15,216 nucleotides of DNA from a virus. Its lineage: Duplodnaviria > Heunggongvirae > Uroviricota > Caudoviricetes. Numbering within the stretch: position 1 is the first letter of the stretch; every line of letters begins with the position of its first letter. The notes under the pieces were generated by a model, which ran no database searches, was not told the DNA's origin, and saw only the letters and a list, made by a program, of their open reading frames with translations. The position numbers and the translations under genes were made by a program. The stretch lies in the IMG/VR virus record IMGVR_UViG_2582581022_000009; one strand, written 5' to 3'. This document shows, in pieces, positions 8,245 to 9,748 of the stretch.

Positions 8245-8385
8245 GAAAATAGCACAGAGTGTAGCATCAGAGCAGGGCTATCGGGAATATATGTTGAGCT
8301 GGCCCCCTGAAATACCAGACAGTAGATGTATCTTAAAATAAGAGATAGGCTTGGATATATGTCTAACACTAGTTCTAATTTTGAG

Positions 8386-8754
8386 ATGGCTGGCGTTTTG
8401 TTAGGAAAAGAGGTGCGTAAACGTAAAACACCTCAGGAAAAAATCGCAATTATTCAACAAACTATGGAGCCGGGCATGACGGTGTCCCACGTGGCGCGTT
8501 TGCATGGAATTCAGCCCAGTCTGTTGTTTAAGTGGAAGAAACAATACCAGGAAGGAAGCCTCACTGCTGTGGCTGCCGGTGAAGACGTTGTTCCTGCTTC
8601 TGAACTGGCCGCTGCAATAAAGCAGATTAATCAGCTTCAGCGTTTACTGGGTAAGAAAACCATGGAAGTTGAGATCCTCAAAGAAGCGGTGGAGTATGCA
8701 CAATCGCGAAAATGGATAGCGCATGTGCCCTTGTTACCTTCGGACAAGGAATAG
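8386..8754 (+). CDS. IS2-like transposase OrfA (HTH DNA-binding subunit)
   Basis: [80 protein letters not shown]... closely parallels IS2 InsC; start set by alignment to the IS2 start context (ORF track starts at 8326). Confidence 0.8.
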
Positions 8755-9593
8755 CCCCGGTAAGCCGTGTTCTGGGCGTGTCACGTGCGCAGTTAACATT
8801 ACGGATGAAGGCATCTGATAACAAGCCAGATAAACGGCGTCAGAGGCGCGATGAGGCTGCGGATGCAGAAGTCTTATCGCGCATCCTGGATATCATTGGC
8901 GATATGCCAGCATACGGGTATCGCCGTGTCTGGGCGATACTCAGGCGGCAGTCCCGAAATGAAGGACTACCGTTCGTGAATGCAAAGCGTGTTTACCGGA
9001 TAATGAGCGAAAATAGTCTGTTGTTGTTACATGACAAACCATCACGACGGCAGCGGGAACATAAAGGCCGAATATCGGTGAAGGAAAGCGACCAGCGTTG
9101 GTGTTCCGATGGCTTTGAGTTCGGTTGCGATGATGGCGAAAAACAGCGTGTTACGTTCGTCCTGGATTGTTGCGATCGTGAAGCCATAGACTGGGCCGCA
9201 AGCACGGGAGGTTACGATAAAGCGACAGTGCAGGATGTGATGTTAGGAGCGATAGAAAAACGCTTTGGCGATAAAGTACCGGAACAGTCCATCCAGTGGC
9301 TGACAGATAACGGTTCAGCGTACAGAGCGCATGAAACACGGCAGTTCGCCAGAGAGCTGAATCTGAAGCCCTGCACAACGGCAATCAGTAGCCCTCAGAG
9401 TAATGGAATGGCAGAACGGTTCGTGAAAACGATGAAGGAAGACTACATCGCGTTCATGCCGAAACCGAATGTAAGAACGGCATTGCATAACCTTGCAGTG
9501 GCGATCGAGCATTACAATGAAAACCATCCGCATAGTGCGTTGGGTTATCGCTCTCCGCGAGAATATCGACGTCAGCGGGTAATGTTAACTTAA
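8712..9593 (+). CDS. IS2-like transposase OrfB (DDE catalytic domain), presumably expressed as OrfAB by -1 frameshift
   Basis: -1 frame relative to OrfA, overlapping 8712-8754; integrase-core-like sequence parallel to IS2 InsD; ends ...[22 protein letters not shown]. Confidence 0.8.
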
Positions 9594-9748
9594 GATACAA
9601 CCCCTGTCTGGAAATAAGGGGGCAAGAACAATCGGGAATATATGTCTAAATCTGGTAATATCTGGTTTTGACGCAAAGCGGACAACCACGCTGGCTCTAC
9701 CCTGCGCCATGAAAATGTCAATTCACATCTGAACTAATGCTCTTTAAT

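Follow-up and report, generated by a model that had tools for sequence, protein, structure and literature searches.

Within the IS3 family, the length of the target-site duplication (TSD) is described as conserved, being 4 bp in the IS407 subgroup, 5 bp in the IS2 subgroup and 3 bp in the rest (Kojima 2023, PMC10045372). Longer duplications have been described in IS481, IS1202 and IS481EU, whose TSDs fall into classes of 4–6, 15–17 and 24–29 bp, about one helical turn apart; according to the same author, the origin of the 15–17-bp and 24–29-bp classes is not understood (PMC10045372). In IS1202, Siguier and colleagues found three lineage-linked TSD classes, and the IS1202 subgroups carry subgroup-specific indels between the transposase domains (bioRxiv 10.1101/2022.12.17.520857). 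Among elements close to IS2, a copy of ISEcl1 in plasmid pCUVET18-1371.4 was reported as "flanked by two 14-bp DRs", with no comment given (PMC10913469). This incidental remark was the sole exception in our literature searches on ISEc48, on long TSDs in IS3 or IS2 elements and on helical-turn spacing in IS3, which otherwise returned no description, and ISfinder may already list the lengths.

The sequence-only reading had placed a perfect 15-bp direct repeat just outside both ends of an IS2-like element, and this was confirmed exactly. In the window (the whole stretch of 15,216 nt analysed here, IMG/VR record IMGVR_UViG_2582581022_000009), ATCGGGAATATATGT occurs exactly at only two places, 8280–8294 and 9631–9645. 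No third match was found in the window with up to two mismatches permitted, and two matches were obtained in 0 of 200 dinucleotide-preserving shuffles. The two 15-mers abut, with zero bases between, a 1336-bp element on the plus strand (8295–9630) that starts with TG and ends with CA. Its imperfect inverted repeats, delimited from the inverted-repeat pairs I1 and I6, extend over 8295–8341 (IRL, +, beginning 5´-TGAGCTGGCCCCC and collinear with the IRL of IS2) and 9585–9630 (IRR, +, ending GGGGGCAAGAACA-3´).

Two overlapping genes are present on the plus strand of the element. The first, orfA (8359–8754), encodes an IS2 TnpA-like protein and was delimited from the open reading frame list, Pfam and NCBIfam matches and the alignment of the lineage. 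Its start codon (ATG at 8359) is shared throughout the lineage, while PGAP places the start at 8386 and the frame is open from 8326. The second, orfB (8712–9593, 293 aa), lies in the −1 frame relative to orfA and encodes an IS2 TnpB-like protein with HTH_21, an rve DDE core and rve_3. The overlap (8712–8754) contains the putative frameshift site; a probable −1 site can be read at 8709–8714 (+), as a slippery A AAA (8709–8712) followed by the orfB ATG. In identical ISEc48 copies, PGAP annotates a joined CDS of 1208 nt labelled "programmed frameshift".

An exact 12-nt match, ATATATGTCTAA, was also observed between 8355–8366 and 9638–9649 (also 8287–8294), joining the IS interior near the orfA ATG at 8359 with the target and right flank; when extended it covers 16 of 19 positions. 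The rough chance of such a match is about 0.01. The targets of 26 other events do not show it as a general motif, and it is probably a coincidence.

The identity of the element was established by megablast of 8295–9630 against 5,426 complete E. coli genomes. The query was matched end to end (1–1336) with 99.4–99.9% identity at many unrelated chromosome and plasmid sites, full-length copies being present in 427 E. coli records, and the matching copies are labelled "IS3-like element ISEc48 family transposase" by PGAP. Two copies are usually assigned to the same IS above 95% DNA identity, a level that the window element exceeds over its 1336 bp when compared with PGAP-named copies rather than with an ISfinder reference. 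The ends and the orfA/orfB arrangement are those of ISEc48; the element itself shows no difference, and the insertion site alone is new. Precisely at the boundaries, 8295 and 9630, similarity to the other copies is lost, and each site has its own flanks; therefore, the IS ends are correctly placed and the 15-mer lies outside an apparently intact ISEc48.

The protein models support the description of the element as IS2-like, given earlier from the sequence, and refine it. OrfA matches HTH_Tnp_1 (3.9e-18) and OrfB matches rve (2e-17), together with rve_3 and HTH_21. OrfB passes the NCBIfam IS3-family equivalog model (204.7 bits, cut-off 160). The top NCBIfam models are IS2 TnpA (196.9 bits, cut-off 229) and IS2 TnpB (416.5 bits, cut-off 597), with both scores falling below the IS2-specific cut-offs. 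On this combination of scores, the element is assigned to the IS2 subgroup, yet it is not IS2 itself. The other hallmarks of the IS3 family are present: overlapping orfA and orfB in the −1 frame, an HTH in OrfA, a retroviral-integrase-type DDE (rve) core in OrfB, and ends TGAGC... and ...GAACA with imperfect inverted-repeat arms. The 3–5-bp TSD of the family is the feature that departs, since 33 of the 35 scorable insertions of the lineage carry 15–16 bp. This mismatch is a variant property and no reason for exclusion, because the IS3 family is defined by transposase and organisation. Likewise, the element agrees with the IS2 subgroup in length (about 1.3 kb), in its inverted repeats of about 40 bp of the IS2 type and in the collinearity of proteins and inverted repeats, and the ISEc48/ISEcl1 lineage departs from the 5-bp TSD given for that subgroup (PMC10045372). 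Membership of the IS481 or IS1202 families was considered and rejected: the IS481 equivalog reaches 93.1 bits where 224 are required, and the element has two ORFs instead of one.

The comparison with IS2 shows how close the two elements are. IS2 measures 1331 bp and ISEc48 1336 bp; their imperfect inverted repeats of about 40 bp are collinear, with GCCCC...CCAGACA motifs, and both have orfA and orfB with a −1 frameshift, the same domains and IS2 TnpA/TnpB as top NCBIfam models. However, OrfB of ISEc48 is 62% identical to that of IS2 and scores below the IS2 subfamily cut-offs, the IRL of ISEc48 begins with TGA in place of the IS2-specific TAG, small indels are found around HTH_21 in the ISEc48 lineage, and the TSD is 15–16 bp instead of 5 bp. 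The sole lineage-specific length changes with respect to IS2 are indels of 1–2 residues at OrfB positions ~49–50 and ~102–113, located in the linkers that flank HTH_21, ahead of the rve core; the proteins are otherwise collinear with those of IS2. In the alignments, these linker indels correlate with lineage, and they could be candidates for a causal role in TSD length. The inter-domain indels of IS1202 offer a parallel.

The nature of the repeat was addressed through the empty site, which was rebuilt by fusing 500 bp of left flank, with one 15-mer at its end, to the 500 bp beyond the right copy. In EC958, JJ1886 and many other genomes, mostly ST131, all 1000 bp of this reconstruction are found as a single unbroken match of 100% identity; there the uninterrupted site lies between queH and the gene for a DUF977 protein and contains a single 15-mer. 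An empty site with one 15-mer implies that the second copy came with the insertion. By this comparison with related prophages, the 15-bp repeat is a true TSD, with its left copy at 8280–8294 and its right copy at 9631–9645. The occupied site was absent from the 5,426 complete E. coli genomes and was not found among the viral and metagenome contigs scanned; the insertion is probably private to the source of the window, and probably recent because both duplicated copies are still perfect.

Other origins of the repeat have been weighed against a genuine duplication. The sequence-only reading had suggested that the IS might have landed in a site where the 15-mer was already duplicated, in tandem or nearby, in which case the repeat would be older than the element. 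This is extremely improbable: the uninterrupted site shows one copy and no tandem, as the unbroken 100% match of the 1000-bp reconstruction in many genomes demonstrates, the 15-mer is found nowhere else in the window, and the same repeat length of 15–16 bp recurs at 32 other unrelated sites. Equally hard to sustain is the idea that the true termini lie farther out and that the 15-mer is a long terminal direct repeat of the element, since similarity among the copies stops at 8295 and 9630 with different flanks at every copy, with no outward extension into the repeat, and the 15-mer is part of the uninterrupted prophage sequence. Finally, the junctions could be an assembly artefact, a repeat-resolved IS having been placed into the prophage with duplicated flanks; the lack of the occupied site in the E. 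coli genomes and in the scanned viral and metagenome contigs, and the frequency with which metagenome contigs break or turn chimeric at ISEc48, would agree with it. However, the junctions carry the 15-bp duplication typical of the lineage, made from a single-copy target, an assembler has no reason to make one, and the IS is complete, its two ends included, so that an artefact is given a very small likelihood. A genuine ISEc48 insertion whose 15-bp repeat is its canonical footprint is the best explanation, and one that we hold with high confidence.

The sequence-only reading had considered a 15-bp duplication atypical for an IS3-family element and perhaps the product of a non-canonical event. 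The survey of other insertions indicates the opposite. TSDs were scored by comparing the bases directly outside the mapped IS ends, and 16 other ISEc48 copies were fetched for this purpose. Long perfect flanking repeats were found in 11 of them (15 bp in seven and 16 bp in four), and viral, metagenome and E. coli sequences added three events of 16 bp and two of 15 bp, one of the events (L022) being taken from the viral-contig scan. With the window included, the long class of ISEc48 reaches ten duplications of 15 bp and seven of 16 bp, in unrelated target sequences. The metagenome scan returned 36 loci, where most contigs end or turn chimeric at the IS, and yielded two new scorable events (L130 and L113, the latter at the same site as L149).

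The analysis was extended to relatives of the element. An exact scan with the 28-nt left end gave no match in the species-representative genomes, and a protein-guided scan with one genome per species was used instead, from which 80 relatives were obtained. Those with 72–80% OrfB identity have ends TGAxxxxxCCCC...CAAGATCA and come from Scandinavium, Atlantibacter, Citrobacter, Yersinia, Klebsiella, Pantoea and Candidatus Sodalis. Their surviving flanking repeats are always 15 or 16 bp and never 5 bp. Five further plasmid copies of the ISEcl1 type gave 15, 16, 15, 16 and 15 bp. With these copies counted, the relatives span nine genera, Serratia and Enterobacter among them, and comprise ten duplications of 15 bp and six of 16 bp. 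For the whole lineage, the 35 scorable independent insertions comprise 20 duplications of 15 bp, 13 of 16 bp, one of 5 bp and one of 4 bp, with none of 6–14 bp or longer than 16 bp. Long duplications have a mean length of 15.39 bp, with a 15:16 mix of roughly 60:40. A duplication of 15–16 bp is normal for ISEc48 and its relatives, and the repeat in the window is the usual outcome for the lineage.

The same pipeline was applied to IS2-lineage elements as controls, with 62–66% OrfB identity and ends TAGAxTGGCCCC...AAATCCA. The copies from E. coli and Shigella are IS2 proper, and those from Klebsiella, Enterobacter, Aeromonas, Lonsdalea and Superficieibacter are its relatives. A 5-bp duplication was recovered in 16 copies and one of 15–16 bp never. 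The pipeline thus returns the textbook 5-bp value for IS2, and the two lineages separate cleanly. No position stands out as a target-site consensus in the ±15-nt flanks of 26 events. The two lineages are also found side by side: at L015, 2 bp separate the end of an ISEc48 copy from the left end of an IS2, and at L038 (~1040–1090) an ISEcl1-type element is interrupted, about 66 bp from its left end, by one of the IS2 type.

About a third of the ISEc48 copies and most Sodalis copies lack a flanking repeat. These comprise L004, L015, L017, L016/L148, several metagenome contigs and most of the Sodalis copies, and among copies lacking a TSD no third class of about 25 bp and no degenerate repeats were found. 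The simplest explanation is that copies recombined with one another, or that rearrangement next to the IS, misassembly or decay obscured the repeat. In Candidatus Sodalis endolongispinus (L041–L075, L082, L088 and L094), dozens of copies of the lineage are present (73–75% OrfB identity), many with small deletions, and intact 15–16-bp duplications remain in four only; this pattern would fit an old bloom of the IS, with recombination and decay afterwards. In E. coli S1-CAM-01-C (L016) and CFSAN004176 (L148), an IS66-family element harbours a variant of ISEc48 that measures about 1337 bp and seems to have one extra G in the right-end G-run. The two loci have the left flank in common and different right flanks, with no duplication, which suggests a rearrangement.

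Two apparent matches turned out to be something else. The insertion in RM10740 (H86) was examined as a near-identical occupied site and rejected, since an extra gene between the IS and DUF977 makes it a different insertion; it carries its own 15-bp TSD. Phage records matching the last 491 bp at ~96% were considered as IS2 controls or as an IS2/ISEc48 mosaic and were likewise rejected, because the match is a truncated ISEc48-like remnant, unusable for TSDs. This remnant (~96–97% identical to the last 491 bp of ISEc48) is found in phages PhiR70_1, mEp332 and ev099 (L018, 522–1012; L019, 506–996; L020, 1501–1991), in the same place beside an AraC-type regulator gene in several lambdoid phages, and looks like an old, fixed IS fragment.

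The plasmid behind the published 14-bp repeat could be re-examined, as pCUVET18-1371.4 corresponds to NZ_CP115013.1 in PLSDB (L142) and its element falls in the ISEc48/ISEcl1 lineage. With IS ends placed according to the other copies, the duplication maps as 15 bp, CCTGTTGAAAAAAGT. The difference between 14 and 15 bp may arise because the last T of the repeat precedes the first T of the IS. ISEcl1 is a 1336-bp IS3-family element, common on Klebsiella and Enterobacter plasmids, with full-length matches in 1,521 PLSDB plasmids. The name is applied here to this type (L030/L142) from the naming of the plasmid element in PMC10913469, not from an ISfinder comparison. It shares with ISEc48 the lineage (72–80% OrfB identity), the ends TGATGTAGCCCC...CAAGATCA and the 15–16-bp duplications, and differs from it as a separately named element, ~77% identical at the protein level. 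In E. coli genomes and PLSDB, relatives are named merely "IS3 family transposase". ISEc48 itself is a known element; the lineage-wide rule of 15–16 bp and the rare class of 4–5 bp appear to be new to the literature, ISfinder entries aside.

The rare short class comprises two events, GTATC (5 bp) in L010 and GAGG (4 bp) in L011. Both empty sites, with a single short repeat, were found at 100% and in one piece in many plasmids, so the two short duplications are genuine. The transposase of both copies, WP_085948175.1, has the accession of same-strain copies flanked by 15-bp and 16-bp repeats. An alternative cause is that the IS2 transposase could act in trans: ISEc48 transposase would always give 15–16 bp, and a resident IS2 transposase mobilising ISEc48 would give 4–5 bp. 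The 5-bp event sits 170 bp from an IS2 copy and shows the length that is the signature of IS2, the inverted repeats of ISEc48 are collinear with those of IS2, and short events amount to 0 of 16 among the scorable relatives. However, the other short event is 4 bp rather than 5, OrfB is just 62% identical to that of IS2 and the terminal bases of the IRL differ (TGA versus TAG), and a single element, IS481EU-7, has documented mixed classes of 4, 15 and 24 bp. Mobilisation in trans is therefore regarded as unlikely, with a chance large enough to deserve weight.

IS3-family elements transpose by a copy-out/paste-in route via a circle, followed by a concerted reaction in which both 3´ ends are joined to the target at staggered points. 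ISEc48 presumably moves in the same way. In the paste-in step, the OrfAB transposase would join the two 3´ ends of the IS to opposite strands of the target, and repair of the staggered gap would duplicate the bases between the two joining points. In elements of the ISEc48/ISEcl1 type, the stagger would normally be 15 or 16 bp, in comparison with 5 bp in IS2, which would make the 15-bp repeat in the window a canonical footprint.

The mean of the long class, 15.39 bp, exceeds the IS2 value of 5 bp by 10.4 bp, approximately a full turn of B-DNA. Judging from TSD lengths alone, the strand-transfer complex of ISEc48 may have a helical-turn geometry, in which the distance between the attacked phosphates would exceed that in IS2 by one helical turn and the active sites, or the captured target DNA, would be arranged so that the same face of the helix is kept. 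The roughly 60:40 mix of 15 and 16 bp fits a preferred spacing near 15.5, and the 4–5-bp events may reflect the occasional use of an IS2-like geometry. It is proposed tentatively, at somewhat short of an even chance, that ISEc48/ISEcl1 is the first recognised IS3 clade to join phosphates normally 15–16 and occasionally 4–5 bp apart, with TSDs that differ by a helical-turn step. IS481, IS1202 and IS481EU resemble the lineage in having discrete TSD classes about 10 bp apart (lineage-linked in IS1202 and mixed within IS481EU-7). However, they are other families with a single-ORF transposase, and their class of about 25 bp was not seen in the ISEc48 lineage.

The insertion interrupts a prophage early operon. 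Annotation transfer from EC958 agrees with the location proposed from the sequence, between the replication-side genes and the block of queH and hok. Ahead of the IS, the minus-strand early rightward operon comprises cro, ydaT, the genes for an HTH replication protein, a DnaC-like ATPase and DUF1627, and DUF977 (9749–10174, −), the last gene upstream of the insertion, whose stop codon lies 104 bp from the insertion point. After the IS come queH (epoxyqueuosine reductase; 7558–8223, −, coordinates transferred from EC958), hokD, DUF968, rusA and the Q antiterminator. The ATG of queH, the first operon gene downstream, is 71 bp from the left end of the IS, and its frame in the open reading frame list reaches 8244. 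The element thus sits within the 174-bp spacer between DUF977 and queH, and its transposase genes are on the strand opposite to the operon, in agreement with the orientation noted in the sequence-only reading. Just downstream of queH, the hokD ORF (7165–7377, −) is overlapped by a full-length sok antitoxin RNA (7315–7490, −; Rfam RF01794, 120.5 bits).

The window aligns to the EC958 prophage at 98–99% near the IS, and elsewhere at 84–97% in patches, with much unaligned; the divergent parts are 1–7076 and 10982–15216, outside some 2.5 kb around the insertion. No tRNA genes were found in the window, in contrast to the corresponding EC958 region. On this alignment, the prophage that received the IS is related to the EC958/ST131 prophage as a mosaic and is not identical to it. 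It is probably a Rac/Qin-type lambdoid prophage, and the insertion probably an ordinary and recent ISEc48 transposition.

To reach queH and Q, transcription from the early promoter would have to run through 1.3 kb of IS sequence that is antisense and untranslated, which makes polarity on the downstream genes plausible. An antisense IS upstream of queH, hok/sok, rusA and Q may lower their transcription. Scans for promoter and terminator consensus sequences inside the IS performed no better than on shuffled sequence. For the window, the event is an ordinary one, a known IS inserted normally and possibly crippling a prophage operon.

The wider meaning concerns the lineage. TSD length serves for the recognition and classification of ISs and for separating real insertions from rearrangements, and a lineage abundant on the resistance plasmids of Enterobacterales breaks the published rule of 3–5 bp for IS3 and 5 bp for the IS2 subgroup; pipelines seeking repeats of 3–5 bp would thus misjudge the ends or flag insertions as anomalous, as happened in the sequence-only reading. 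A clade with TSDs of 5 bp plus about one helical turn, and occasionally of 4–5 bp, is of moderate specialist interest, and its novelty depends on the ISfinder records. IS2, with 5 bp, and ISEc48, with 15–16 bp and a rare short class, form a natural pair for studying strand-transfer spacing in DDE transposases. If the proposal of a helical-step clade is true, exchanging segments of the two elements in E. coli could reveal the determinant of the spacing. It would also bear on how the classes of 15–17 and 24–29 bp arise in IS481, IS1202 and IS481EU, with the advantage that IS2 is biochemically tractable.
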